From contig CAXXMV010000006.1 of assembly GCA_963662285.2 (NCBI GenBank), positions 1,504,001-1,568,000 on the forward strand: a stretch of 64,000 nt of DNA, in the 5' to 3' direction. The position numbers and the translations under genes were made by a program. This document shows, in pieces, positions 25,724-44,942 of this stretch. A model generated the notes under the pieces. It saw only the letters and a list, made by a program, of their open reading frames with translations, was not told the DNA's origin and did no database searches. The first letter of the stretch is position 1. Each line of letters begins with the position of its first letter. The DNA comes from a bacterium. GTDB lineage: Bacteria > Hinthialibacterota > Hinthialibacteria > Hinthialibacterales > Hinthialibacteraceae.

Positions 25724-27364
25724 ATGATAAACCGAATGTTTTCAGCATGTTTTCTTATGTTATCGCTGCTCGTTTGTGGATTCACTTCAGTGGCAATGGC
25801 GGAAAGCGTTCAACGGTGGGGACGATTCGAAAACTCATTTATAAGTACTATAGAATACCAAAATCCTGTCCAGCAAGTGAAATTGAAGGTTGAATTCACT
25901 TCACCTGACGAAAAAAAACGTACTATTCTTGGATTCTGGGATGGCGCAAAACAGTGGCGCGTCAGGTTCTCCCCTGATCAGATTGGTTCTTGGACTTATA
26001 AAACTTCCTGCTCCGATGAGCAAAACAGTGGCTTAAATAATCAAACCGGCAAGTTTGAATGCATAGCATATAAAGGCAATCTCGAGTTATTTAAGCATGG
26101 CGAACTCAGGATATCTGATAACCATAGATACATAGTTCATAACGATGGCGCTCCATTCTTCTGGTTAGCCGATACGGTCTGGTGCGGTCCGGCGCTGTCG
26201 GATTTCGATGATTGGCAGGTATTCTGCCAGGACCGGGTTGATAAAGAATTCACCGCCATTCAATTCGTCATGACTCAATGGCGCATGACCAAAACTGACG
26301 CCGATGGCAATCCTACATATACTGGAAAAGAAAAGATCGCTTTGAATATGAATTATTTCCAGCGTTTGGATAAATACGTAGATCAAATTAACCATGCCGG
26401 TCTGGTGGCGGTTCCCGTCCTGCTTTGGGCTATTAATGGAGAAGAGAATCCCGGTTGGTCATTGCCTGAAGATCAGAAGATTATACTGGCTCAGTACATG
26501 ATCGCCCGCTATGGCGCTCATCAGGTTATCTGGTTCCTGGGCGGCGACGGTAATTACAGCGGATCAAGAGCAGATAGTTGGAAACGCGTCGGCAGAGCAG
26601 TATTCAATAAAGATCAACATCGTCTGGCGACCATGCACGTCGGTGGAACTATGTGGGCTGAGAAAGAATTTAGCGGTGAACCATGGTTCAGTTTTCTGGG
26701 CTACCAAAGCGGTCATGGCGATAGTCAAAAAACATTTGCTTGGTTGAACCAGGGACCGCCCAGTACTGAGTGGAATAACCAACCAACTTTGCCATTTATT
26801 AATACCGAACCGAATTATGAAGCTCATAATGGATACTCGTCCAAGAAAGTGCATAATGATCATGCCGTTCGCCGGGCAGCTTATTGGAGTCTTCTGGTTT
26901 CGCCTCCCGCCGGGGTAACCTATGGCGGTCAGGGCATCTGGGGATGGCATACAAAAGTACAAGCGCCCGCCGACCATATAAGCACCGGTTTGGGATCGCC
27001 CTGGAATATCGCCAAAGACCTGCCCGGCGCCTTCAGCATGAAATATCTGCATCAATTTTTCAAATCAATCGATTGGTGGACATTGCTGCCTGCTCCAGAG
27101 ATGGTTTTGAATCAACCAGGAAAAGAAGATCCGTCAAAATTCATCGCCGCCGCGAAATCTAAGGACGGCGCCTTAGCAGTGATATATCTTCCTGAAGGTG
27201 GAGAAGTCAAACTGGATACAGCATCATTAAAAAAGGACGCCGTGGCGCGTTGGTATCATCCACGTACAGGCGGTTGGCTTAATGCAGATATGATTCTACA
27301 GACTCCTCAGGTTTTCAAGACGTCTGATCGCAACGACTGGGTTCTTCTGATTGAAGCGAAATAA
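25724..27364 (+). CDS. DUF5060/DUF4038 (apiosidase-like) glycoside hydrolase with C-terminal collagen-binding-like domain
   Basis: GFWDG..WRVRFSP, DGAPFFWLADTVW, YQSGHG, NTEPNYE, WYHPRTG. Confidence 0.85.
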   Translation: MINRMFSACFLMLSLLVCGFTSVAMAESVQRWGRFENSFISTIEYQNPVQQVKLKVEFTSPDEKKRTILGFWDGAKQWRVRFSPDQIGSWTYKTSCSDEQNSGLNNQTGKFECIAYKGNLELFKHGELRISDNHRYIVHNDGAPFFWLADTVWCGPALSDFDDWQVFCQDRVDKEFTAIQFVMTQWRMTKTDADGNPTYTGKEKIALNMNYFQRLDKYVDQINHAGLVAVPVLLWAINGEENPGWSLPEDQKIILAQYMIARYGAHQVIWFLGGDGNYSGSRADSWKRVGRAVFNKDQHRLATMHVGGTMWAEKEFSGEPWFSFLGYQSGHGDSQKTFAWLNQGPPSTEWNNQPTLPFINTEPNYEAHNGYSSKKVHNDHAVRRAAYWSLLVSPPAGVTYGGQGIWGWHTKVQAPADHISTGLGSPWNIAKDLPGAFSMKYLHQFFKSIDWWTLLPAPEMVLNQPGKEDPSKFIAAAKSKDGALAVIYLPEGGEVKLDTASLKKDAVARWYHPRTGGWLNADMILQTPQVFKTSDRNDWVLLIEAK

Positions 27365-27379
27365 TTAAGGTTAAACACA

Positions 27380-28912
27380 ATGTCTCTTATCGGTCTCGAC
27401 ATCGGCGCAACTGGTTGTAAAACAATAGTATTTAGTGAAGAAGGTCATATTCTTGGACAATGCCATAGAGAATACAGTATCCTGCATCCTCAACCCGGTT
27501 GGATTGAACAGGATGCTGAGCGCGTCTGGCAGATGGCCTGGGATTCCCTCGAAGACGCCATCGCCGATGCAGGGCGGGGTGATTCTCCCACGGCAATGGC
27601 AATATCCGTGCAAAGCGGCGCCATTATTCCCATCGATCGCAGTGGTTTCTCCATGCGCTACGCTATTTTGGGTATGGATGCCCGCTCCAGTGCGGAAAAC
27701 CAATGGCTGCAAGAGACATTCGGAGCTGAAGAATTATACAATCTGACCGGGGCGCCATTACACCCTTCAAACATGCTGCCCAAATTACTCTGGCTGCAAC
27801 GCCATGAGCCGGATTTATGGAAACAGGCAGACTACTTTCTATCCTACGAAGATTTCATATTACGCCGTTTCATCGGTAAACCTATGACTGGACATTGCCT
27901 GGCCTCATGCACTCAGATGTATGATTTAGCTAATGGATGCTGGGCTGGAGATATTCTTGATAAATGCAGTATAGATGTAAACCGTCTGGCCGCTCTGGGG
28001 ACTGAATCAGTCGGCGTTCTGGGAACCATGCGCCTGGAATTGGCTATGGAATTAGGCGTCCATCATAATGACATCGCTATCATCAGTGGGGGACGCAATC
28101 ATGCCTGCGCCGCCATAGGCTGCGGCGCCATCAAGACCGGATCAGTAGTAGTCTCCACCGCAATCGATCAGGTAATTGCAACAGCTATAGATTCTCCTGC
28201 GATCAATAAAACTCTGCGCGAGGGCAATATTGAGGTATGCCGTCATGCAGCGCATGGATTATATTTGGCAATGAACCGGAATCCGAACAGTGAGTTACTG
28301 CTGCGTTGGTTCAGGGATTCTTTCTGTGAACCGCAAATCGAGCGGACTAAACAAAGCGGAGGTGATCCCTATGATCTTATACTAGCGGATGCTACAGAAG
28401 GCCCTACCGGATTAATGGTTCTGCCTCATTTCGCTGGAAGTGGAACGCCTCAATTAGACGCAGAATCCAAAGGCGCCATTCTTGGTTTGACCCTGTCTGA
28501 CAACCGATCAACTATCGCCAAAGCAATGCTCGAAGGATTAAGCCACGAACTACGCATCAACCTTGATACGATTCGGGACGGTGGGATTGATATAAGCCAG
28601 TTGAATATTGTAGGCGATAGCGCCAGCAATCCATTATGGCTGCAAATTCAAGCCGACATCTGTCAGATTCCATTGAACGTTGCCCAAACAACAGTAACCT
28701 CATGCCTGGGCGCGGCGCTTCTAGCAGGAACCGCTACGGGAGTATATCCAGACCTTGATTCAGCAATTTCGCAAACCGTAAAAAAACCACAACGCATCGA
28801 GCCGCAACAAGCAAACGCCGCCGCTTATAATAAAGCTCATCAAACCTATAAAAAGATTTACCCCGCCATCAAATCGATAGGACGCGCTTCTACTTGGTCC
28901 CATAATACTTAG
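27380..28912 (+). CDS. FGGY-family carbohydrate kinase homolog with degenerate catalytic motifs
   Basis: GLDIGATGCK, PQPGWIEQD, D.R, LPHFAGSGTP, KGAILGL, A.LEG. Confidence 0.85.
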   Translation: MSLIGLDIGATGCKTIVFSEEGHILGQCHREYSILHPQPGWIEQDAERVWQMAWDSLEDAIADAGRGDSPTAMAISVQSGAIIPIDRSGFSMRYAILGMDARSSAENQWLQETFGAEELYNLTGAPLHPSNMLPKLLWLQRHEPDLWKQADYFLSYEDFILRRFIGKPMTGHCLASCTQMYDLANGCWAGDILDKCSIDVNRLAALGTESVGVLGTMRLELAMELGVHHNDIAIISGGRNHACAAIGCGAIKTGSVVVSTAIDQVIATAIDSPAINKTLREGNIEVCRHAAHGLYLAMNRNPNSELLLRWFRDSFCEPQIERTKQSGGDPYDLILADATEGPTGLMVLPHFAGSGTPQLDAESKGAILGLTLSDNRSTIAKAMLEGLSHELRINLDTIRDGGIDISQLNIVGDSASNPLWLQIQADICQIPLNVAQTTVTSCLGAALLAGTATGVYPDLDSAISQTVKKPQRIEPQQANAAAYNKAHQTYKKIYPAIKSIGRASTWSHNT

Positions 28913-28921
28913 CTAATCAAA

Positions 28922-30136
28922 TTATTTCTTCGGCGCAGTCCAGGAAAACAGTTTTGCATCAGTGAATGGCAGTTTGTTGAATGAACGGCTGCTCTTCTTA
29001 TTAAAAAATATCTTATCGGCGAAGTCGGCTAAGGCTTGCCAGTCTTCTATCATCTGATCATGGCCGCCTTGGCGGAAGTGGATTCCATTATTGCCGCTGG
29101 CATTGAGAAAGTCGAAAACTGGTTGGGCAGCGAGATAGGTCTGCTGTTCGCCGATAGGATTAGCCCACTTGTCGCCCAGGGCGTCGGTGGTTAAGAGCGC
29201 CCGTGGCGCCACCAGGGCTTTAAGGAAATGTTGGTCGAATGGAAGTCTGGTTTCCTTATCAGCGAAATCCCGCAGACGCTTATGAAACCAATAACTGAAG
29301 CGCTTGGGTTCGGTAATCAGTTTAAGGCTTTCTCCAACTCTAACCCGGTAGCAGCCGCCTCCCCCGCAACCTGAACCATTGGGAACCGTCAACGCGATGC
29401 GTTCATCCAACGCTCCCGCCAGTAAAGCAGCCTTACCGTCACGCGAATGGCCAGTTATGGCGATGCGCTCTTTATCAACGCAATCCAGAGTCATGAAATA
29501 ATCCACCACCCGATGGCATCCCCAGGCCCACGCGGCCAGAGCAGCCCAGTCGTATTCGGGGTAAGCTGATTGCGCAGCGCCGATTACATCGTTTCCCTCA
29601 ACATCTGGATCAACGCTGTCGCGGGCGTACTCGCAGGCGATGTAACCACGGTCGATCAGTTCACAGGCGATGGGAATATCTCGCAGCCCGGTTTCACCCA
29701 AGTGGGGCGTGAACTTGATAATAGCAGGGAAGGGGCCGCCGCTGTTAGGAATCATCATACCGATGTTTATCTTGATTTGACTGTTCGGTCCCAGGGTAAG
29801 CAGGATGCGCTTTTCAGTTGCGGCGCCATTGAATACGCTTTTTGAAGATAGTTCACGGGCGATTATGTTGTCTGGCGCCGGGGGCATGAAACCGTATTGA
29901 TAGTAGAGCATCATCGATTTGATTTCAGCGCGACGCTTAGTCCAATCCGAGATACTGCGAACCATCGTTCCATCATTCATCATAAAAGGATTGGGCAGTT
30001 CTCTAATTACCGGCAGTTGATCCACATCCGGTAACTCAATCGCACTGGGCGTCTGCGCTTGTGAAATAATCGTTAAGCAGCAGAAAAACATGATGACGGC
30101 TAAGCAGTAAATCCACATATCGTTTTTATCTAACAT
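28922..30136 (-). CDS. Carbohydrate esterase family 15 (glucuronoyl esterase-like)
   Basis: AAWAWG, GHSRDGK nucleophile motif, SGCGG, PFDQH.L.ALVAPR. Confidence 0.9.
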   Translation of the reverse strand: MLDKNDMWIYCLAVIMFFCCLTIISQAQTPSAIELPDVDQLPVIRELPNPFMMNDGTMVRSISDWTKRRAEIKSMMLYYQYGFMPPAPDNIIARELSSKSVFNGAATEKRILLTLGPNSQIKINIGMMIPNSGGPFPAIIKFTPHLGETGLRDIPIACELIDRGYIACEYARDSVDPDVEGNDVIGAAQSAYPEYDWAALAAWAWGCHRVVDYFMTLDCVDKERIAITGHSRDGKAALLAGALDERIALTVPNGSGCGGGGCYRVRVGESLKLITEPKRFSYWFHKRLRDFADKETRLPFDQHFLKALVAPRALLTTDALGDKWANPIGEQQTYLAAQPVFDFLNASGNNGIHFRQGGHDQMIEDWQALADFADKIFFNKKSSRSFNKLPFTDAKLFSWTAPKK

Positions 30137-30305
30137 TGGCGTCTCTTTTCAGGTTTATTAGCATATTCTAATCCGTTAGTTCTTTCCGGGAAATGAGGAT
30201 TAATTCTGTAATTACCTATCTAAACCTTCCTTTTTTGCAGCCATTCTGAGAAAATTTACACTCAATTTAATATATTTGCCTTAAATAATGCACAGGAGAA
30301 TAGCA

Positions 30306-31655
30306 ATGGATCGTAGAAAATTTTTACAAGCCAGCGCCGCTGGACTCGCAATGTCGTCTTTGAGTAGCCATGCCGCTGATTTCGATAGACAAAAAAAACG
30401 CAAAGTCGCTCTGATTGGCAGTGGATGGTATGGCAAAAGCGCTCTGCTCCGCGCCATCCAGGTGGCGCCAATAGATGTGGTCGCCCTGTGTGACGTCGAT
30501 AGCCAGATGGTGGCTGAAGCCGCTGAACTGGTTGCCACGCGGCAGCAATCCGGCAAGAAGCCCCGCACCTACGGTGATTTCCGCGAAATGCTTAAAAAGG
30601 AAGAACTGGATATCGTCCAGGTTTCAACCCCGGATCATTGGCATGCTCTAGCCGCCATCGCCGCCATGCAATCCGGCGCTGATGTATACGTCGAGAAACC
30701 CGTCAGCGTTGATGTTGTTGAAGGCCAGGCTATGGTGGCCGCCGCCAAGAAATATAAACGGGTAGTGCAGGTCGATACCCAAAGACGCAGCACTCCGCAT
30801 CTGATTGAAGCAAGGGATAACATCATCCGCGAAGGCAAACTGGGCAAGATCGCCTATGCCGAAGTCTGCTGTTATTATCACATGCGTAATCGCAACAAAC
30901 CTCAAGTCATTACGCCGCCTGCAACTTTAGATTACGATTTCTGGGCAGGTCCAGCGCCCAAGATTCCCTTCAATCCCAATATTCATCCGAGAAGCTGGCG
31001 CGCCTATATGGAATATAGTAATGGCATCATGGGCGATATGTGCATCCACATGTATGACATGGTGCGCTGGATGCTCGATTTGGGTTGGCCCAAGCGCATC
31101 AGTTCATCCGGAGGCATCCTGGTCGATAAGGAAAGCGTAGCCACTATCTCCGATACCCAGACCGCCACCTTCGACCATTGGGATAAGGATATAGTATGGA
31201 CCCACCGCACCTGGGGTTCCACGCCGGATAAAGATTACCCTTGGGGCGCCATTATATACGGCGACAAGGGAACCTTGAAATTAAGCGTTCATGGCTACGA
31301 TTTCATCCCTCAAGGCCGGGGCGAAAAAATCCGCAAGGACGTTACCTATGAATTAGAGCAATATCCCGAAGACAAAACCGAAAAAGATCTAGAAAAACAA
31401 TGCGCTCCAGCTCTCCGCGCTCATTGGAAGGATTTCCTTACCGCTGTTGATAACCGGACCAAGCCAGTCGCCACTATCGAAGAAGGCTTTATCTCCAGCG
31501 CCAGCTGCATCATGGCCAATATCGCCATGAAAGTTGGCCGCACCCTGGCCTGGGATCCAATCAAAGGCTGCATCATCGGAGACGATGAAGCCAACAAATT
31601 ACTCCAACGCCCCTACCGCAAACCCTGGGTGCACCCCACACCTGATAACATTTAA
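30306..31655 (+). CDS. Gfo/Idh/MocA oxidoreductase, Tat-exported
   Basis: MDRRKFL Tat signal, IGSGWYG, TPDHWH, VYVEKP. Confidence 0.93.
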   Translation: MDRRKFLQASAAGLAMSSLSSHAADFDRQKKRKVALIGSGWYGKSALLRAIQVAPIDVVALCDVDSQMVAEAAELVATRQQSGKKPRTYGDFREMLKKEELDIVQVSTPDHWHALAAIAAMQSGADVYVEKPVSVDVVEGQAMVAAAKKYKRVVQVDTQRRSTPHLIEARDNIIREGKLGKIAYAEVCCYYHMRNRNKPQVITPPATLDYDFWAGPAPKIPFNPNIHPRSWRAYMEYSNGIMGDMCIHMYDMVRWMLDLGWPKRISSSGGILVDKESVATISDTQTATFDHWDKDIVWTHRTWGSTPDKDYPWGAIIYGDKGTLKLSVHGYDFIPQGRGEKIRKDVTYELEQYPEDKTEKDLEKQCAPALRAHWKDFLTAVDNRTKPVATIEEGFISSASCIMANIAMKVGRTLAWDPIKGCIIGDDEANKLLQRPYRKPWVHPTPDNI

Positions 31656-31676
31656 GTGATAGTATTCATTGAGACT

Positions 31677-31710
31677 AACGGGCTATGCGAATAATTGCAT
31701 AGCCCGTTTT
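31677..31710 (+). terminator. Intrinsic terminator
   Basis: AACGGGCTATGCG-AATAAT-TGCATAGCCCGTTTT after the stop codon. Confidence 0.7.
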
Positions 31711-31876
31711 GGTTAATCGTTTTGATATTTCAAACAAGGGCTGCTGCGTCAACCTTGCGGCAGTTAATGTATTTGGTTAATTATATTGTTGATAATTTGT
31801 TATTTTAGGGCTAATATTTTGAGATATCTGATAAGTATTGTTTTGTTGCGTGATAAATGTCAAAGTGAGATATAAC

Positions 31877-32560
31877 ATGAATAGAAACAAACTAATCTTA
31901 TTTATATTGCTGATTATTCCTTTTTCTTTGAATAATTGTATTTTTATGCCGCGGAATAACTTGAAAGTTGATAAGCAGCGTCAAATTGAAGAAGATAGCC
32001 GTAATCAAATAATTGAAACAGATGATATTGTCTCGGCGACATCCGTTATAGTAACGGATAATAAACACCCGACAATATTCTCTAGAAAATTATACGAAAA
32101 GGAAGCTTATGCAAAAAGAGATTTTGTTTTGAATCAATTAAAAAAGATGAGAAAACTGGAAAAAGTTTTTGGTAAAGTAACCCATTATCAGGATAATGGT
32201 GACAAATTATCTGTAGATGTCTTCAACAGAAAAGGAAAGATGCTTGGGAAACTGTGCTACATGAATGACTATTGGGTTCACCAATATGTGGAATGGGATA
32301 AAGGGAAACAAAATGGTTTAACGGCATTTTTTACAAAAGATCATAATCCCTATCAGATATATACATTCAAAGATAATAAACTGGATGGTCCGATCTATGA
32401 GTTTGTAAAAGAGGGATCAAGAAAAGGAACTCTGATTCGATATATTGAAATGAAGAATCATTCGTATATGGGATTGTGTCTTGGTTGGAGTGAGGATGGC
32501 GAAATCCTTGATGAATCGAGATTGATAACAGAACCAAAGCCATATTATGGCCTGCCATAA
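31877..32560 (+). CDS. AT-rich exported protein with MORN-variant (YwqK-like) repeats
   Basis: Hydrophobic N-terminus with Cys; repeats EWDKGKQNG, FKDNKLDG, MKNHSYMG...WSEDG. Confidence 0.65.
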   Translation: MNRNKLILFILLIIPFSLNNCIFMPRNNLKVDKQRQIEEDSRNQIIETDDIVSATSVIVTDNKHPTIFSRKLYEKEAYAKRDFVLNQLKKMRKLEKVFGKVTHYQDNGDKLSVDVFNRKGKMLGKLCYMNDYWVHQYVEWDKGKQNGLTAFFTKDHNPYQIYTFKDNKLDGPIYEFVKEGSRKGTLIRYIEMKNHSYMGLCLGWSEDGEILDESRLITEPKPYYGLP

Positions 32561-32596
32561 AGATTATAAATTAAGACTTTTCGCTTAACAAAAGCG

Positions 32597-32660
32597 CGTA
32601 GGATGGGACAAAGCAAAAAAAAACTTTTCTCTCAAAATCACCTCTGCAGCGTGTCTCATC
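32597..32660 (+). repeat. REP family B variant interrupted by a ~30-nt insertion
   Basis: CGTAGGATGGGACAAAGC...CAGCGTGTCTCATC compared with the intact copy at 39873-39906 (reverse). Confidence 0.7.
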
Positions 32661-32778
32661 CGCCTTCGCTTAAGAGCATTCTCGTAATCTAATCATAAAT
32701 GGCCTGATTCCATTGGACTCCAGTTTAACGCATGTTATTATTAGAGATACTAAATATCTAATAATAAAAGAGTCCATT

Positions 32779-33660
32779 ATGATCCATACCCGACGACAAT
32801 TCCTGCTGACATCGATAACTTCACTGCTAGTTCCGCAATCTCTCTTTGCCGGACAGAATCCTAAATTATCTTTTGGGATGCTCACTGACGCGCATTATTG
32901 CGAAGCGGAGGCGCGGGGGACGCGTTATTACCGGGAATCAATAAAAAAAATGCGTGAATGCATCAGCGAAATGAATCAACAGAAAGTTGATTTTGTGGTT
33001 GAACTGGGAGATATGAAAGATCAGGATTCGCCGCCGGTTGAATCTCAAACCATTAAATATTTGCAGGCCATCGAAGCGGAATTTCAGAAATTCGACGGTT
33101 CCCGGTATCACGCCCTCGGCAACCATGATATGGACAGCATATCGAAGAAGCAATTCCTGACGAACATTGATAATACTGGAATCGCCCAGGATAAATCATA
33201 CTACTCCTTCGATAAAGGCGGTCTGCATTGCATCGTTCTGGACGCCAATTTCACCAGCAAAGGCGTCCCCTATGATCATGGCAATTTTGATTGGACTGAC
33301 GCCAATATCCCACAGCAAGAACAGGACTGGCTCCAAAATGATTTAAGCAATACTAATAAACCCGTAATTGTGTTTCTTCATCAACTACTTGACGGCGAGG
33401 GAAGCGTGTTTATCAAAAACGCGGTGCAAGTACGTAAAATCCTTGAAGCATCAAACAAGGTTATAGCAGTCTTCCAGGGACACCATCATGCTGGACAATA
33501 CAACCATATCAATAAGATTCATTACGTAACCCTGAAAGCTATCATCGAAGGCGCTGGAGAGGAAAACAATGCTTTTGTTATAGCAAATTTCGAGCAGGAT
33601 CGTATAGTTATAAAAGGCTACCGCAAAGCGGTTTCGAGAAAACTTGAGTTAAACAGTTAA
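32779..33660 (+). CDS. Calcineurin-like metallophosphoesterase, Tat-exported
   Basis: TRRQFL; DAH, LGD, GNHD, FLH and GHHH motifs. Confidence 0.92.
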   Translation: MIHTRRQFLLTSITSLLVPQSLFAGQNPKLSFGMLTDAHYCEAEARGTRYYRESIKKMRECISEMNQQKVDFVVELGDMKDQDSPPVESQTIKYLQAIEAEFQKFDGSRYHALGNHDMDSISKKQFLTNIDNTGIAQDKSYYSFDKGGLHCIVLDANFTSKGVPYDHGNFDWTDANIPQQEQDWLQNDLSNTNKPVIVFLHQLLDGEGSVFIKNAVQVRKILEASNKVIAVFQGHHHAGQYNHINKIHYVTLKAIIEGAGEENNAFVIANFEQDRIVIKGYRKAVSRKLELNS

Positions 33661-33679
33661 CCAATAAGCGAGAGAAATC

Positions 33680-35059
33680 ATGAAAAGACGGGATTTCCTG
33701 AAAACCTCCGGCGCCTTTGCTGGTCTAATGACTATCAGTCCATTTACGAAAGCCAGTCAAGAACAACCTGATCGACCCAACATCATTTACATTATGGCTG
33801 ATGATCTCGGCTATGGCGACTTGGGATGCTATGGCCAGAAACTGGTTAAAACTCCCTATATAGACTGCTTGGCGCAAGAGGGGATGCTATTCACCCAGCA
33901 TTATTCCGGCAGCACCGTCTGCGCTCCTTCCCGGTGCAGTCTTATGACTGGATATCATACCGGGCATACCTTCATCCGGGGCAATAAAGAAATTCAGCCT
34001 GAAGGACAATACCCTATACCCAAAGACACTTATACTGTCGCCAAACTGATGAAAAATGCCGGTTATAAAACGGGTATAGTAGGCAAGTGGGGGCTGGGCG
34101 CTCCGGATTCTGATGGCGCTCCCAATAAGCAGGGATTCGACTATTGGTTCGGCGTGAATTGCCAGCGACAGGCGCATCGTTACTACCCCACTCATCTTTG
34201 GGAAAACACAACAAAAATTGAACTGGGCGGCAAAAAATACTCTCATGATTTGATGACCGAAAAAGTTCTCCAGTTTCTGGATGATAGCAAGGATGCGCCC
34301 TTCTTCCTTTATCTGCCATACACCATTCCTCATGCTGAACTGAATGTTCCTGAAGATTCCATGAAACCATACCGGGGCAAATTCGAAGAAAAATCATTCC
34401 CCGGCGCTGGCAACTATGGCGCAACCGATGAACCTAGAGCGGCTTTTGCAGGTATGGTTTCGCGCATGGACCGGGATGTCGGGCGTATCATGAGTAAACT
34501 GAAAACCTTAGGTATTGACGATAACACCCTGATTCTCTTCACCAGCGATAACGGCCCCCATAAAGAAGGCGGCCACGATCCTGAGTATTTTAATAGCAAT
34601 GGACCACTACGCGGCGTTAAACGCGACCTCTACGAAGGCGGCATCCGCGTACCGATGATCGCCCGTTGGCCTAAGACGATTAAACCTGGAACCAAATGCG
34701 ACCATATCTCCGCTTTCTGGGATTTCATGCCCACCTGCGCTGAACTGGCTGGCGCCAAGATTCCTCAAGGCATCGATGGCATCTCCTATGCTCCCGTTCT
34801 TTCCGGCAAGCCGGAAAAACAAAAGACGCACGAATTTATGTACTGGGAATTCCATGAAAGAGGTTTAACTCAGGCTGTCCGTATGGGAGACTGGAAGGCT
34901 TTTAGTCCGGGCAAAGGTAAACCACTGGAACTTTATAATCTCAAAAATGATATTGGAGAGCAAAACAACATCGCTGAAAAACATCCGGATATCATCAAGA
35001 AAATTGAGAATTATATAAAATCAGCCCGTACCGAATCCGAAGTATTTCCAGTGAAATAA
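33680..35059 (+). CDS. Arylsulfatase (formylglycine-dependent), Tat-exported
   Basis: MKRRDFL; ADDLGYGD; CAPSRCSLMTG; GKW; SDNG. Confidence 0.95.
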   Translation: MKRRDFLKTSGAFAGLMTISPFTKASQEQPDRPNIIYIMADDLGYGDLGCYGQKLVKTPYIDCLAQEGMLFTQHYSGSTVCAPSRCSLMTGYHTGHTFIRGNKEIQPEGQYPIPKDTYTVAKLMKNAGYKTGIVGKWGLGAPDSDGAPNKQGFDYWFGVNCQRQAHRYYPTHLWENTTKIELGGKKYSHDLMTEKVLQFLDDSKDAPFFLYLPYTIPHAELNVPEDSMKPYRGKFEEKSFPGAGNYGATDEPRAAFAGMVSRMDRDVGRIMSKLKTLGIDDNTLILFTSDNGPHKEGGHDPEYFNSNGPLRGVKRDLYEGGIRVPMIARWPKTIKPGTKCDHISAFWDFMPTCAELAGAKIPQGIDGISYAPVLSGKPEKQKTHEFMYWEFHERGLTQAVRMGDWKAFSPGKGKPLELYNLKNDIGEQNNIAEKHPDIIKKIENYIKSARTESEVFPVK

Positions 35060-38609: not shown

Positions 38610-39203
38610 ATGCGATCTGAACAGGATTTGGTGGAAGGCGTCAAGCAACAGGATCCGGGGATTTTTGAAGAGTTCGTACGCCGCTATCAACAACGGGTCT
38701 ATTTCACATCATTACGCATGATGGGCAAGCGCGAAGACGCCCTTGATGCGGCGCAGGATATATTTCTTAAAATCTGGAAATACGCTCCGAAATTGCAGGA
38801 TGCTGTTGTGCTGGAACGCTGGGTTTACCGCGTGACCATAAACGCCTGTATAGATCGCCTACGCAGCAGAAACGTTCATGAATCTCATCTAAATAAAAAT
38901 AATGTTTTAATGTTCTCGCTGGCAGAACCTGGCATGAATCCACGGGATTATGCTCGAAGATTGGAAGATTTGGGTAATGTCAGAGAAGCGTTGGATGGTT
39001 TGACTGAACGTCAACGGGCAATATTTGTATTGCGGCATTTCCAGAACTTGAAAATCAAAGAGATTGCTGAAGTCATGTCTATGCCGCTTGGAACGGTTAA
39101 GGCTACCCTTCATCAGGCCTTTTATAAATTAAAGGAATTATTGAGCGACGTCGTCGTCGAACAACCGGAAAGAAAAATTGATGACACCGAACAAACCGGT
39201 TAA
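38610..39203 (+). CDS. ECF sigma-70 factor
   Basis: Region 2 DAAQDIF...WVYRVTINACIDRLR; region 4 LTERQRAIFVL...EIAEVM..PLGTVK. Confidence 0.93.
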   Translation: MRSEQDLVEGVKQQDPGIFEEFVRRYQQRVYFTSLRMMGKREDALDAAQDIFLKIWKYAPKLQDAVVLERWVYRVTINACIDRLRSRNVHESHLNKNNVLMFSLAEPGMNPRDYARRLEDLGNVREALDGLTERQRAIFVLRHFQNLKIKEIAEVMSMPLGTVKATLHQAFYKLKELLSDVVVEQPERKIDDTEQTG

Positions 39204-39220
39204 ATCAGGGGAGGCGATTG

Positions 39221-39751
39221 ATGCGATTTAAATGCGATGACTTAAAAGAACGCTGGCCGGAATATATCTACCGCGAACTTCCAGAACACGAACAATCATT
39301 ATTCGTCCATCATCTTGATGAATGCGAAGATTGCAGGGCTGAAGAGCGTCAATGGCGCGGCATGTTGTCGGAATTCGATTCGATCGTGTTGTTTGATGAT
39401 AGCATGGAAGCTCCCACCGAGTTGCTATACCGGGTCAAGCGCCAGATTCGGTTTTATGAAGAGTGGTCGAAAAAGCAGAAACAATCAATGCGTAAATGGA
39501 TCATTGGCGCTGCAGCCGCTTGCGCTCTGATAATCTTCGGGCTGTGGGGCGCATATCAAAACCAGTTGGATGCCCGGCTCAGCGCTAAAGAGAATTCTAC
39601 ATTTCAACCAATCAAAGCCTCTATTATTGATTCTATATACGATCCCGACATTGTTATTCAATACCATGAGCATGAGATATTGCAAAAGCCAAAGAAGGTC
39701 GACGCCTCGGTTGATGAGAAAGAGAAAGAGCCAACCGAAGAGAATAAATAG
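39221..39751 (+). CDS. Zinc-binding (HxxxCxxC) transmembrane anti-sigma factor
   Basis: HLDECEDC, single TM helix, directly after the ECF gene. Confidence 0.88.
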   Translation: MRFKCDDLKERWPEYIYRELPEHEQSLFVHHLDECEDCRAEERQWRGMLSEFDSIVLFDDSMEAPTELLYRVKRQIRFYEEWSKKQKQSMRKWIIGAAAACALIIFGLWGAYQNQLDARLSAKENSTFQPIKASIIDSIYDPDIVIQYHEHEILQKPKKVDASVDEKEKEPTEENK

Positions 39752-39930: not shown

Positions 39931-40971
39931 ATGCGGTTATTTTGTTTTTATGGCGTAATCATATTTTTATCTCAAATCGTGCTGTTGACTCCAGGCCATG
40001 AATGCTTTGGCGCTGAATCTAATAAAATTGATAATTTAACCCTGGCTGACATGGTCGAGAAGACTTTGCAAAAACTTGATCCCATTATTGTTTTGTATAT
40101 CCAAAAGCGCGATCAGGATTTTCCCGGTAAGCCAAATAGTAAGTGGAAATCAGTTAATTTATTTGGTACTCAAGGAATAGGGTTGACGAATAGAACTGAT
40201 TTTATGGAAAACATTACACAAGATGAAATGGATAAGAATTTGCCAGTTCAAAGGCAAATTTCTTTAATCAAAAACGGTTTTAGTTATTCATTGAATACAT
40301 TGTTGAACCATGGTACTAAATCATCTAATCAAGTTTTGTATAATTTGATCGAATCGCAATGCATCAGTTCGTGGTTTAAACAACACTCTTTTACTTACTA
40401 TCCAGATTTAATTCGAAATAAATATGATGTTTATGTCGTACCAGAAAATTTAGAAATAATAAATAACAAAGTTACGATTGTCGTAAGATACCGTAATAGC
40501 AAATTATATGGAAAAGACAAGCGTAAGAAAATTACTTTTGATTTATTACGCGGAGCTCTTCTTGAAGCATATCATCTTGAACAACTAGATTTGAAAACTA
40601 ATAAATGGTATTTACGTCAAGCCTATGATGTTGTTGAATGGCAGAAATTGGACGATGGAACTGATTTTCCTAAAATATGTGAATATAGATTTCCTTCTTC
40701 AACAAAAAAAGGCCCTAGTAAGTTATTGACGACTAAATTAACTGTACTGCAAGTTAAGAGACCTAAGAATTTTGATCATATAGTGAGCGATTTTAGATTT
40801 ACTGTTGGATGTAAATATTACGATATTGATACCAAAACATTTCATGAAGTCGGGTCTGGTGAGAGGTTTGAGGAACTTAGAAATAAACCTACGAATTGCA
40901 CACTGGTTAAACGGGCGTTGGGGATGGAGTTAGAGGAATTTAATAAACTGTATGATGATTTGAAATGGTGA
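39931..40971 (+). CDS. AT-rich hypothetical secreted protein
   Basis: 346-aa ORF, AGGAG RBS, signal peptide, no recognised motif. Confidence 0.75.
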   Translation: MRLFCFYGVIIFLSQIVLLTPGHECFGAESNKIDNLTLADMVEKTLQKLDPIIVLYIQKRDQDFPGKPNSKWKSVNLFGTQGIGLTNRTDFMENITQDEMDKNLPVQRQISLIKNGFSYSLNTLLNHGTKSSNQVLYNLIESQCISSWFKQHSFTYYPDLIRNKYDVYVVPENLEIINNKVTIVVRYRNSKLYGKDKRKKITFDLLRGALLEAYHLEQLDLKTNKWYLRQAYDVVEWQKLDDGTDFPKICEYRFPSSTKKGPSKLLTTKLTVLQVKRPKNFDHIVSDFRFTVGCKYYDIDTKTFHEVGSGERFEELRNKPTNCTLVKRALGMELEEFNKLYDDLKW

Positions 40972-41092: not shown

Positions 41093-41223
41093 GATACGGG
41101 ATTGCTGTCACCCTATTGGATTTGATGGATTATTGATAGTATGGAAATATTATAATTAACAAATTATAGCAAATGAAAATTAAACAACCAATTGTTTCTA
41201 TAGAGTTTGGAAGGGGATTACTC

Positions 41224-41787
41224 ATGAAAAGAAGGTGGAATCAAACCGGATTTACATTATTGGAGTTGATGACGGTTGTTGCCATTATCGGGATATTGTC
41301 CGCCATTGCAATTCCTAATTTTATGAATGCCGCTATTCGGGCGAAAGTGGCGAAAGCAGAAGCTGATATAGAAAATATTGTCTGGTCTTTAGAGATGTAT
41401 TTCGTTGATTTCGATGAATATCCTACTAATCAAAAAACGGGTAAATCATTGCGTGGAGACCTGTCGCGCTTAACCACGCCGATTCCTTATATAAATGTTG
41501 TTCCTGAAGATGTCTTTCTTTCGCCTAACAGGTATGAGCGTAAGGAATATATCCAAGCCGTTCGTGATGGGAATCCAAATTACCGGTTTATCAATTTTCT
41601 GTCTACTGATGGAAACCGCGTATCATTAAAGCAGTTTGGTTTAGAGGGTTCAGCCAATTATGCTATGTATAGTTATGGTCCCGGTTTCAGTGCGGATTGC
41701 GACCCCATGATTCCCGCTACTTTCATAAAATATAATCCCAGTAATGGAACCACTTCTCATGGAGTAATTCTGAGTTTCGGCCCCTAA
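41224..41787 (+). CDS. GspG-like prepilin/pseudopilin
   Basis: G|FTLLELMTVVAIIGILSAIAIP, LEMYFVDFDEYP, C-terminal YNPSNGT.S.G. Confidence 0.9.
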   Translation: MKRRWNQTGFTLLELMTVVAIIGILSAIAIPNFMNAAIRAKVAKAEADIENIVWSLEMYFVDFDEYPTNQKTGKSLRGDLSRLTTPIPYINVVPEDVFLSPNRYERKEYIQAVRDGNPNYRFINFLSTDGNRVSLKQFGLEGSANYAMYSYGPGFSADCDPMIPATFIKYNPSNGTTSHGVILSFGP

Positions 41788-41842: not shown

Positions 41843-42892
41843 ATGTCGAAATATAAATGGGATAACCTCATTCTTTTTGTGGAACAATTGGCCACCGCCT
41901 CGAAACTGCAATTGCCTTTGGATAAAACAATTGCATCAATGAGCCGTGAAGCCTTGGATAGCAAGTGGGGCAAGACTCAGGAGAGCGTTTCTGAGTTGGT
42001 GCGGCTTGGATCAACCTTGTCGGATGCAATGGATAATTATCCACAATATTTCCCTGGAACCATACGACGGTTGGTCAGGGTAGCAGAAGAGGGCAAAGTT
42101 CTAACCTGTATGCTCAGCAGTCTTAGCGGGTATTTGCAGTCGTCCCGAGAAGTACAGCACCGTCTTCAAAAATGCATGATTTATCCATTGATCGTATGGT
42201 CTTTGCTTTTGATAGATGTAGGAATACTGGTGGCTTATGTTTTTCCGAAGTTCATAAATCTGCAACAGGCTGCTGGGATGCAAGAGACTGATTTCACCTT
42301 GAGAATGCTAACCATTGGTCCAACGGCGTTGATTCTTATTGAAGGGTTATTTCTGCTAATTGCGTGGATTATGATCGGCTGGCTCAGCGCCGACCTGGAA
42401 GGGAAGCAATATACTGGCGGTAGGATCAACCGGGTAATCGCCTATATACCTTTTTTAGGCAATCTACATCGACATGCCAAGGCCGCCGAGGTTTGTGAAA
42501 TTCTGGGAATATTGATTGAAGGCGGTAGGGATGGGCGCGAGGCGGTCAGTATCGCCAGAGATGTTATTGATAACACGCCAATCCAAAAAGCCTTGAACGA
42601 AATTGACGCAGCTCTGCTTACTGGAGAACAGTATCAAGTGATTGACGATAAAAGCGTGATTCCCCCGACATCGCTTTGGATGATATCCGAGAGCAGTTCA
42701 TCACCGGAATTAGGCCAGGCGCTAAGAAGCATTGCGACGTGTCATCGCCGTCAGGTTGATATGCTATCGAGCATTCTACGTGAACTAATCGAACCGCTGT
42801 TGCTTTTTTCCATTGCGGTATTGGGTGGTATGACCATAGTCGCTTTTTACTTTGCGCTGTTTAAGATGACTGCTGGTTTTATGATGTTCTAA
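41843..42892 (+). CDS. Type II secretion/type IV pilus platform protein (GspF/PilC family)
   Basis: QLAT...LPL, G.TLSDAM...P.YFP, EEG.., MIYP, IPFLG, LIEP; two T2SSF repeats. Confidence 0.85.
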   Translation: MSKYKWDNLILFVEQLATASKLQLPLDKTIASMSREALDSKWGKTQESVSELVRLGSTLSDAMDNYPQYFPGTIRRLVRVAEEGKVLTCMLSSLSGYLQSSREVQHRLQKCMIYPLIVWSLLLIDVGILVAYVFPKFINLQQAAGMQETDFTLRMLTIGPTALILIEGLFLLIAWIMIGWLSADLEGKQYTGGRINRVIAYIPFLGNLHRHAKAAEVCEILGILIEGGRDGREAVSIARDVIDNTPIQKALNEIDAALLTGEQYQVIDDKSVIPPTSLWMISESSSSPELGQALRSIATCHRRQVDMLSSILRELIEPLLLFSIAVLGGMTIVAFYFALFKMTAGFMMF

Positions 42893-42901
42893 AAGGCATA
42901 A

Positions 42902-43945
42902 GTGATAAGAACCATGAATAAAGACCAATTAGATATAAAGATAAAAGTTCCGCTGTATCTCCGCGCCTTCAGGATAATAATGGCGTTGACTGTTTGTCTG
43001 GTGCTTATAGCAATATCGCTGGTAATCTTTACGTATTATCAAAGCAACTGGAAGAATATGGATTTTCTGACTTTTATGTATCCCATAATCATCCTGGTTT
43101 CTATAATCATTCTTCCACTTTGCGTTATTGCAGCAAATTACTTTTGCAATGATCATATTGTCCATATAAGCGTCTCGGTTTTATTGGGAATTATTATTTA
43201 TGTAGGGCTAATGGATTTACAAGAGACCTCGAGAGTTGGTTTGTATATTGGAATTGTTCTGGCAATTTATTTGAGTCTGTTTTTTGCTTTTTATAAAATG
43301 CCATTGATGATATTCATCCTCTTTACAATGATTATAGTGTTAGGTTTTGGTTGGCAAATTCTTCCACCGCTAATATCCATGATAGTTTTGGATATAAAGC
43401 CAAACCAATTATTTATGCCTTTTTTGTTTTCTTTTATCCTGTTAGCGGTCGGGGGAATGTTGATGGCCTGCGCATATCTACCCCGTGAAATTGAATGGAA
43501 AAGATATCTCTTTCCATACCGCAATAATTCTGTATTCTCAATTCACAAAAACAAAGATGGCGGGTTTACGCTGATTGAGGTGTTAATCGCAGTTGCCATA
43601 ATCGGGATACTTTCAGGAGGCGTGTTTCATTCATGGGCTTCTATAGTGCGTTCTCACAAACAGTTGCAGATACGCTCTCATGCATTGGAAATCATTAATT
43701 CTGAAATGAACGCATTGATGGCGACCGAGGCGGCGCTGGTTTATTCTGAAGAACCAAATGCGCTGCCCATAAATTTACAGGATTTCGTCTCGCCTTATAA
43801 ATTCACTGGAAACTACCTAATCAATAAGACTGATGATGCTGGAATTGTGAAAATCACAGTCAACTTATCGCATATCATAGAGAATCGCAGCGAGCGTAAC
43901 TTCAGATTGGTGGGCTACCGGCGTTTGGAGGTGAAGACGCCATGA
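42902..43945 (+). CDS. Six-TM membrane domain fused to an internal prepilin (GspI/PilV-like) domain
   Basis: Six hydrophobic segments, then KNKDGG|FTLIEVLIAVAIIG at about residue 221. Confidence 0.75.
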   Translation: MIRTMNKDQLDIKIKVPLYLRAFRIIMALTVCLVLIAISLVIFTYYQSNWKNMDFLTFMYPIIILVSIIILPLCVIAANYFCNDHIVHISVSVLLGIIIYVGLMDLQETSRVGLYIGIVLAIYLSLFFAFYKMPLMIFILFTMIIVLGFGWQILPPLISMIVLDIKPNQLFMPFLFSFILLAVGGMLMACAYLPREIEWKRYLFPYRNNSVFSIHKNKDGGFTLIEVLIAVAIIGILSGGVFHSWASIVRSHKQLQIRSHALEIINSEMNALMATEAALVYSEEPNALPINLQDFVSPYKFTGNYLINKTDDAGIVKITVNLSHIIENRSERNFRLVGYRRLEVKTP

Positions 43946-44436
43946 AACATTCCAAAAAGGGCTTCACCCTGATTGAGTTATTAATTGTTATTGCAATGTT
44001 GAGCATTATGTCTGGAGTTGTTACTAAAATGTGGATCGGCATGGAGAGAATGTCATCCGCCGTGCGCAGCAACATGAAATTCTCGTTTCAGGGACGCCGG
44101 ATTCTGGATCAATTCAGAAGCGACATCATGCAATCAACCCAAGTATCCCATTCTCCAGAAAATCTTATAACGCTGAACCAAGATATAAAGAACGGGCAAG
44201 AGCGTCAGTTGATATACCGTATGGATGGCCGCGAGTTGATTCGGGATACGGTAATAGGCGATAAGATAGCGCGGTCAATCAAAATAGCATCGCTTGATAA
44301 ACTAATGCTTGATATCGCTTTCAAGGATAACGGCGCGGTGCGTATAGAGTTAAGTCGTAAACCAAAGCAACTTCCCATGCAATTCAGGGATTGCCGTATG
44401 GCGACTTATGTCAGCGCATTGGGAGAAGATTTATGA
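43942..44436 (+). CDS. GspJ/PilW-like minor pseudopilin
   Basis: KKG|FTLIELLIVIAML...DI motif. Confidence 0.88.
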   Translation: MKHSKKGFTLIELLIVIAMLSIMSGVVTKMWIGMERMSSAVRSNMKFSFQGRRILDQFRSDIMQSTQVSHSPENLITLNQDIKNGQERQLIYRMDGRELIRDTVIGDKIARSIKIASLDKLMLDIAFKDNGAVRIELSRKPKQLPMQFRDCRMATYVSALGEDL

Positions 44437-44942
44437 GAGAAAATGATCCCAGACGGGGCGCTGCGCTTATACTTTATGTAATGTTTCTTACGGTTGTTGC
44501 GTTATTGATAATTACAGCAACAGTAAACCGGAATATCATGGCCTCGCGGGATCTGCACCGGGGATTTTATAAAATCCAGGCTGATTGGTTAGCCCACGGC
44601 GCTGTAGAACAGGCTCTGGCAGTAATAAAGAGTTCCGGGGATAACGTTACTCCGGTTAAACGTGATTTCAGCGAAACAGTCGCACCTGTGTTTGTGGGCG
44701 ACGATCCATTTGATAATAAAGAAGATACGTCCAGCGATCCTAGAATCATAACCGCCATATACAGTTATCAGATTAGTTCAGTTGGTGAAGATCTGCTTAA
44801 GCAGAATGAAACCAGGGGCTTTTTGGTATCAGCCCGATGCGATATACCCTATCGCTCAATCAAACTGACCAGCATCCAAACCCGGATATGCGCTTATTCT
44901 GAGGATCATGGGTGGAAGGTGCGTCCCCTGGTCAGTAAGTAA
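44433..44942 (+). CDS. GspK/PilX-like minor pseudopilin
   Basis: RRG|AALILYV (no E5), QA.WLA.GAVE.A motif. Confidence 0.75.
   Translation: MRENDPRRGAALILYVMFLTVVALLIITATVNRNIMASRDLHRGFYKIQADWLAHGAVEQALAVIKSSGDNVTPVKRDFSETVAPVFVGDDPFDNKEDTSSDPRIITAIYSYQISSVGEDLLKQNETRGFLVSARCDIPYRSIKLTSIQTRICAYSEDHGWKVRPLVSK

Follow-up and report, generated by a model that had tools for sequence, protein, structure and literature searches.

The gene cluster around ORF X

The window, by which we mean the whole 64,000-nucleotide stretch of bacterial DNA analysed here, contains an open reading frame (ORF X) that lies among genes for type IV filament components. The features of ORF X and of its neighbours are as follows, with positions given in the window.

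38610..39203, + strand: ECF sigma factor (Pfam Sigma70_r2 and Sigma70_r4_2)
39218..39751, + strand: anti-sigma factor (zf-HC2) paired with the ECF sigma factor (Pfam zf-HC2, E 5.3e-7)
41173..41787, + strand: GspG-like major pseudopilin (Pfam N_methyl and T2SSG)
41843..42892, + strand: short GspF/PilC-type platform protein, 349 aa (Pfam T2SSF, E 1.8e-27)
42902..43945, + strand: precursor ORF X, 347 aa, found as full-length single frames in 17 genomes
42953..43477, + strand: six predicted transmembrane (TM) helices of ORF X (residues ~18-192), N-terminus predicted cytoplasmic (hydropathy, AlphaFold2, K+R bias)
43472..43516, + strand: juxtamembrane motif A-Y-L-P-R-E-I-E-W-K-R-Y-L-F-P (residues 191-205), conserved and predicted to lie on the cytoplasmic side
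43517..43564, + strand: variable hydrophilic linker ending in G221 (position -1), a leader-like stretch by the predicted cleavage site
43565..43942, + strand: predicted mature GspI/XcpV-like minor pseudopilin (residues 222-347), with an alpha1 helix carrying E5 and a four-stranded sheet
43942..44436, + strand: second minor pseudopilin with a normal 7-residue leader, MKHSKKG↓FTLIE (Pfam N_methyl)
44391..44942, + strand: short GspK-like protein (NF037980 T2SS_GspK, 24.9 bits, below the cut-off of 130)

ORF X starts with a GTG, 10 bases past the stop codon of the GspF-type gene, and its own stop codon overlaps the start of the following pilin gene (43942). An alternative ATG lies four codons in, at 42914, and aligns with the start codons of relatives; the residue numbers used here count from the GTG at 42902. 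The initial annotation had placed ORF X in the minor-pilin slot of the operon, and the related loci agree with this. The GspF gene lies directly upstream and the second pilin gene directly downstream in all 12 loci compared, and the same order of GspF, X and pilin was found in 13 of 15 further loci, the other two stopping at a contig edge; the two sets are not independent, since many of the loci come from the same genomes. In relatives, the GspG-like gene is also kept upstream of GspF and the GspK-like gene downstream, and the pair of ECF sigma factor and zf-HC2 anti-sigma factor lies upstream of GspG in 12 of the 15 related loci (L015-L029). In the window, a non-conserved, secreted-looking ORF of 346 aa (39931-40971) separates the sigma pair from GspG.

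The GspG-like ORF scores 61.8 bits against TIGR01710, below the cut-off of 88.85; its first ATG would give a 26-residue leader, and an internal Met (MKRRWNQTG↓F) a 9-residue leader (41173-41250). The short GspF aligns with positions 63-397 of TIGR02120 and thus lacks about the first 60 positions of the profile, and its M1 is invariant in 11 orthologues. Five family genomes without X also had no orthologue of the short GspF; the best GspF-type frames in them were 410-449 aa long (E 1e-42 to 1e-48), so the whole cluster is present or absent as a unit. The second minor pseudopilin gave weak ComGF/GspH-type matches, all below their cut-offs. In contrast to type II secretion, the X cluster holds no gene for GspE, GspD, GspL, GspM or GspC. 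Regarding the partners expected of a GspI, namely GspJ/GspK-type neighbours within a type II secretion cluster, we found the weak ComGF/GspH pilin and the GspK-like protein at 24.9 bits, and neither GspD nor GspE. The genome has 11 T2SSE-type ATPase genes, the nearest about 41 kb downstream of X (contig C6, 1587939-1592128). Elsewhere in the window (25724-35059) lies a run of polysaccharide-degradation genes comprising an apiosidase-like hydrolase, an FGGY sugar kinase, a glucuronyl esterase-like gene, a GFO/IDH/MocA oxidoreductase and a sulfatase.

A class III motif behind six predicted membrane spans

ORF X matches the Pfam N_methyl profile (PF07963) over residues 217-242 (E 4.4e-9, 36 bits, cut-off 21.2) and TIGR02532 over residues 221-241 (29.6 bits, cut-off 16.3). 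Both matches are above the cut-off and bear out the canonical class III signal that the initial annotation had read at about residue 221. The sequence around the site is ...KNKDGG↓FTLIEVLIAVAIIG, with G221 encoded at 43562-43564, F222 at 43565-43567, and E226 at position +5 (G221↓F222-T-L-I-E226). It contains what is expected of a type IV pilin motif, which is Gly or Ala at -1, an aromatic or hydrophobic residue at +1, E+5 and about 20 hydrophobic residues. However, such a motif is expected at the N-terminus behind a short hydrophilic leader, and in X it is found at residue 221 after six predicted TM helices. Class III signal peptides are defined by this short hydrophilic leader, according to Berry and Pelicic (2015). 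The in-frame ATG codons nearest to the site, those of M186 and M188, both fall within TM6 and would leave leaders of 36 and 34 residues, respectively; the earlier statement that no Met occurs within about 30 codons before the motif was correct.

The window's own 7.29-Mb genome (G000) contains 123 open frames with a class-III-like motif. When the nearest ATG was taken as the start, 94 of these had leaders of fewer than 10 residues and 18 had leaders of 10-19 residues, and ORF X was the only true pilin motif found behind six TM-like segments without a nearby start. Chance does not explain the arrangement in X. Six TM-like segments also precede a weak class-III-like string, G↓ISLIELIA, in a frame of 742 aa (contig C6, 1879861, + strand); the hydrophobic tract usual in pilins is missing there, and the frame has the look of a polytopic protein with a chance match. 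Many of the 123 frames share a near-identical helix, FTLIELLIVVAIIGILAAIAVPNF, and together with the 11 ATPase genes and two A24 peptidases they make up a very large type IV filament repertoire.

The six hydrophobic segments reported before the motif were recovered by two approaches. Hydropathy averaged over 16 family members gave six peaks, at about residues 24-45, 60-80, 90-105, 116-130, 137-162 and 176-192, and an AlphaFold2 model of whole X, built on a 16-member family alignment (mean pLDDT 64.9), placed helices at 18-48, 55-81, 84-107, 112-131, 135-163 and 172-203. A second model, of residues 1-221 with 28 sequences, gave the same six helices at moderate confidence (pLDDT 70.9). Across the 16 sequences, Lys and Arg account for 203 of 993 residues in the segments predicted to lie inside (the N-terminal tail, loops 2 and 4, and the segment after TM6), compared with 33 of 590 in the outside loops (1, 3 and 5). 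The positive-inside rule therefore predicts a cytoplasmic location for the N-terminus and for residues 193-221. The prediction supports an N-in topology with six TM helices and a cytoplasmic cleavage-site region, as had been proposed.

To describe the selection on the two halves, we used the close pair L004/L005, as synonymous sites are saturated in more distant pairs. The dN/dS ratio was 0.18 over 217 codons of the N-domain and 0.06 over 125 codons of the pilin. Judged by this ratio, the N-domain is a coding region under purifying selection. The only invariant residues of the N-domain in 16 sequences are Y192, P194 and R195, all in the juxtamembrane motif, with R201 and Y202 conserved in at least 90%; P194 and R195 are still invariant in 28 sequences, and the family form of the motif is A-Y-x-P-R-x-x-E/Q-W/L-K/R-R-Y.

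The N-domain showed no relationship to known proteins in the searches performed. A Pfam scan gave nothing for it at E 0.1 or better, N_methyl being the sole match in X, and comparison with the ESM Atlas gave no usable match. A fold comparison with VIA-align against 48,161 chains returned a designed helical protein as the best match (Z 8.3), followed by generic helical hairpins, and Foldseek with the whole X model returned no match to the N part. Two specific candidates were considered and rejected. As an A24 prepilin peptidase, the N-domain gave an hhalign probability of 0.2% against the genome's own PilD and no Peptidase_A24 match in Pfam; two conserved Asp residues would be expected of such an enzyme, and the invariant residues are only the three named above. 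As a relative of GspF/PilC, it gave a probability of 0.3% against the GspF alignment and no Pfam match. A complex prediction from the GspF and N-domain alignments gave a score of 0.00, which bears neither way on binding. The initial annotation had also suggested a sensor-gated maturation device; with no ligand-binding or catalytic signature found in the N-domain, and three invariant residues, that suggestion received no support.

In the AlphaFold2 model, the pilin part of X consists of a helix (224-274) and four strands with pLDDT 80-90, so that the lollipop fold of a long alpha1 helix on a beta-sheet is seen in a predicted model only. The top PDB matches by Foldseek were chains of XcpV, the GspI of Pseudomonas aeruginosa (5bw0_B and 5bw0_F; target-normalised TM 0.71-0.74, rmsd 3.3-3.5 over 89-94 columns, E 0.065-0.12), in line with the earlier description of this part as GspI/PilV-like; no Foldseek match of the X model was as good as E 0.001. 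Against TIGR01707 (gspI), X scores 26.8 bits, below the cut-off of 44.35, and aligns with profile positions 1-55 only. Since this score is below the cut-off and no Foldseek match reached E 0.001, we use the term "GspI-like" rather than "GspI": the C-terminal part is GspI-like by modelled fold and gene position, and not a proven member of that family.

X and GspI/XcpV are alike in the class III motif with E5, in the predicted long alpha1 helix with a small sheet, and in genes that adjoin other minor pseudopilins and a GspK-like gene. X differs from GspI/XcpV in the weak TIGR01707 and Foldseek values (26.8 bits against 44.35, and E 0.065 against 0.001) and in its 221-residue region with six predicted TM helices, where GspI/XcpV has a leader shorter than 10 residues. 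A search with a profile of the pilin domain found P0030, a distant relative of 129 aa with an ordinary five-residue leader (E 2.4e-11), as well as P0029, a fragment of a fused member that matches the C-terminal part of P0014 by eye. Judged by the ordinary leader of P0030, the pilin half descends from normally processed minor pilins and the six-TM region was added. In a PDB sequence search, matches to the pilin-domain profile were confined to the alpha1N segment of many pilins, and a word-based search with the single pilin domain as the query, among candidates of 73-233 aa, gave no match.

Recurrence of the fusion and conservation at the predicted cleavage site

In a six-frame search, 17 of 41 genomes, the window's own counted, showed X as a single frame of 336-392 aa without interruption. 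These carriers are 17 of the 35 species genomes of the phylum, with one copy per genome; a profile of the N-domain matched 16 of the 35, once each, and the full-length query brought in G007 as the seventeenth. G015 has a frame of 230 aa next to a contig edge. The carriers are all from a single order, in which they fall into three families (14 of 19, 1 of 4 and 1 of 2 genomes, with the window's genome left out of the counts), and X was absent from all nine genomes of the phylum's other three families. The carriers represent at least 15 genera, at 27-41% identity. As far as searched, X is confined to one order of an uncultured phylum.

Protein databases gave a similar picture. A word-based search returned seven relatives of 335-450 aa, all with PF07963, and the N-domain profile, made from 12 sequences, gave 25 matches at E <=0.001 among 1.84 billion representative proteins. 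In 22 of the 25 a pilin follows in the same frame: 20 are full fusions of 316-399 aa, and P0017 and P0026 are N-truncated fragments that still run into the pilin. P0024 is a repeat protein and probably a false match, and P0027 diverges mid-domain as if frameshifted. P0022 (262 aa) is a relative of the N-domain that ends 19 residues past the PR motif, with no pilin; it occurs on two contigs, the longest of 19,994 nt, and shares 27% identity with the N-domain of the fused P0019. This protein may be a natural split form of X. No related loci were found in metagenome contigs with P0022 as the query, or in genome contigs with X alone as the query. In P0004 (450 aa), the N-terminal tail and first helices are duplicated in tandem, a segment starting MNDPERISTLK... 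coming again about 90 residues on.

An independent contig of 10,344 nt from a public run spans 42700-44100 of the window and agrees with it at every position (0 differences, 0 gaps), although the run may be that of the source sample. The initial annotation had named several observations that would count against a genuine fusion. Relatives carrying two separate genes were not found, P0022 being the single candidate for an exception; an assembly error is contradicted by the identical contig; and no internal start is conserved. The fusion recurs as the conserved form, and is neither an assembly error nor a recent stop loss.

The residues around the site were compared in 30 distinct family sequences, some of which are close relatives. 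Position -1 is occupied by Gly in 25, Ala in four and Ser in one (entropy 0.77 bits), whereas positions -13 to -2 vary widely (2.8-3.5 bits). Position +1 is Phe in 26, Val in three and Tyr in one (0.67 bits), and T2, L3, I4 and E5 (T223, L224, I225 and E226 in X) are invariant in 30/30. The last ~12 residues before the site are hydrophilic, as in a normal leader, and the AlphaFold2 pLDDT is below 50 over residues 192-222 of X, consistent with a disordered linker. The distance from the PR motif to the site is 27 residues in 10 of 13 sequences, and the sequence between them is variable. In a survey of internal starts covering 13 of 15 sequences (L027 and L028 left out), four had no ATG, GTG or TTG in the stretch from the PR motif to the site; the rest had such codons at scattered positions. 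As to the enzyme, G000 encodes a bifunctional prepilin peptidase of 291 aa (A24_N_bact and Peptidase_A24; contig C2, 284343) and a second, shorter A24 frame.

A candidate cleaved precursor and its alternatives

We lean towards the reading that X is split by a PilD-type prepilin peptidase, which would yield a mature minor pseudopilin and a membrane protein with six TM helices. The abrupt onset of conservation at -1 and the PilD-type peptidase encoded in the genome are the grounds on which cleavage is inferred. According to Pelicic (2023), the last residue of a leader peptide is Gly or Ala and the cut is made on the cytoplasmic side; conservation that starts exactly at the scissile bond, with small residues at -1, fits this rule. 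X would be translated as one polytopic precursor of 347 residues, the six helices inserting first, N-in and C-in, followed by the cytoplasmic motif and the ~27-residue linker. The class III helix would then form a seventh span and carry the GspI-like globular domain into the periplasm. The peptidase, encoded elsewhere in the genome, would cut after G221 on the cytoplasmic face and probably N-methylate F222. One product would be a mature minor pseudopilin of 126 residues, which with the two downstream minor pilins would prime a GspG pseudopilus on the short GspF platform. The other would be a 221-residue six-TM protein with the AYxPR..EWKRY tail, which would stay in the membrane, probably as an accessory to the assembly platform, produced in a 1:1 ratio with the priming pilin. 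The selection on the six-TM fragment suggests that it probably has a role of its own at the platform; this proposed role rests only on conservation. A bolder version, in which one gene delivers a priming pilin and a new six-TM platform subunit in a 1:1 ratio at the same site, and the tail couples the short GspF to an ATPase and replaces GspL/M-type parts, seems doubtful to us.

Some observations sit uneasily with cutting. One sequence has Ser at -1, which is outside the Gly/Ala rule, and the conservation of G-1 and E5 could reflect docking to the machinery instead of cutting. In addition, all documented leaders are short and hydrophilic (6-26 residues; Berry and Pelicic 2015), whereas the substrate in X would be tethered to six helices. 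The closest precedent for a longer leader is in the type IVb/Tad prepilins, which, like X, have a longer-than-usual leader before a Gly or Ala site, cut on the cytoplasmic face by a dedicated prepilin peptidase. The documented leaders, about 15-30 residues long in the type IVb case, are hydrophilic and without a membrane span, as given by Berry and Pelicic (2015). The corresponding region of X differs in having 221 residues and six predicted helices and in being itself under selection.

Alternatively, X might stay uncut as a permanent seven-TM protein whose periplasmic GspI-like domain docks the minor pilins and acts as a fixed base or nucleation site, which we regard as possible, though rather unlikely. 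The N-domain and the pilin are almost never found apart, and in 10 of 13 sequences the PR motif stands 27 residues before the pilin helix, which suggests a defined geometry within one chain. The archaeal ArlF/ArlG proteins (FlaF/FlaG) offer a model: they are archaellin-like proteins that keep an uncleaved N-terminal anchor and, as an uncut X would, tie a pilin-like domain to the membrane as a permanent component of the type IV filament machinery. However, ArlF/ArlG have a single N-terminal helix and are not known to carry a G↓F...E5 signature, whereas X keeps the full cleavage signature. An uncleaved helix would need no small residue at -1, yet conservation in the family begins exactly there and only Gly, Ala and Ser occur. 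The linker, hydrophilic and predicted to be disordered, is leader-like, and a membrane-bound pilin of the tip type would block a filament growing from its base, on the model set out by Pelicic (2023).

Two further explanations were considered. Translation might begin internally, for example at M186 or M188, to give a conventional prepilin with a ~34-residue leader, the full-length or N-terminal product being a separate membrane protein. A G-rich stretch, GGGGGA, does lie a few bases ahead of the M188 ATG in the window, and a 34-residue leader from M188 would include the conserved motif. However, Met positions are not conserved, a start within TM6 would leave half a helix in the leader, and no stop codon ends an N-terminal product; as four of 13 sequences are without any start codon in the stretch from the PR motif to the site, and the positions are scattered in the others, an internal start cannot explain the family, and we consider it improbable for X. 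The fusion might instead be an artefact of assembly, a frameshift or a recent stop loss that joined two genes, for which the pilin-less P0022 and the frameshift-like P0027 could be cited. Against this stand the recurrence of the frame in 17 genomes, which come from at least 15 genera (27-41% identity), the purifying selection on both halves, the identical public-run contig and the fixed synteny around X, so that an artefact is hard to credit.

In summary, the sequence data describe X as a candidate minor pilin of a type IV filament whose polytopic pro-region is without precedent and whose cleavage is plausible but unproven; cleavage, methylation of F222 and the role of the fragment are all inferred. 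No description of a pilin with a polytopic leader was found in the literature searched, which lay outside most subscription journals. Pilin search tools depend on the N-terminal position of the motif; PilFind, for example, limits its search to the first residues of a protein. The cluster as a whole, with an ECF sigma factor, an anti-sigma factor, GspG, a short GspF, X and two minor pilins, is a distinct minimal type IV filament cluster in a little-known phylum. An uncut X would be a pilin-like protein of a bacterium that stays anchored in the membrane, which bears on the way in which filament assembly is started by minor-pilin complexes. If X is cut, what a prepilin peptidase accepts would extend beyond peptides of a few residues to include a polytopic protein, and the cell would have a route to a filament-priming pilin and a membrane partner in equal amounts. 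In the polyprotein reading, if true, prepilin peptidase would be a polyprotein-processing enzyme.
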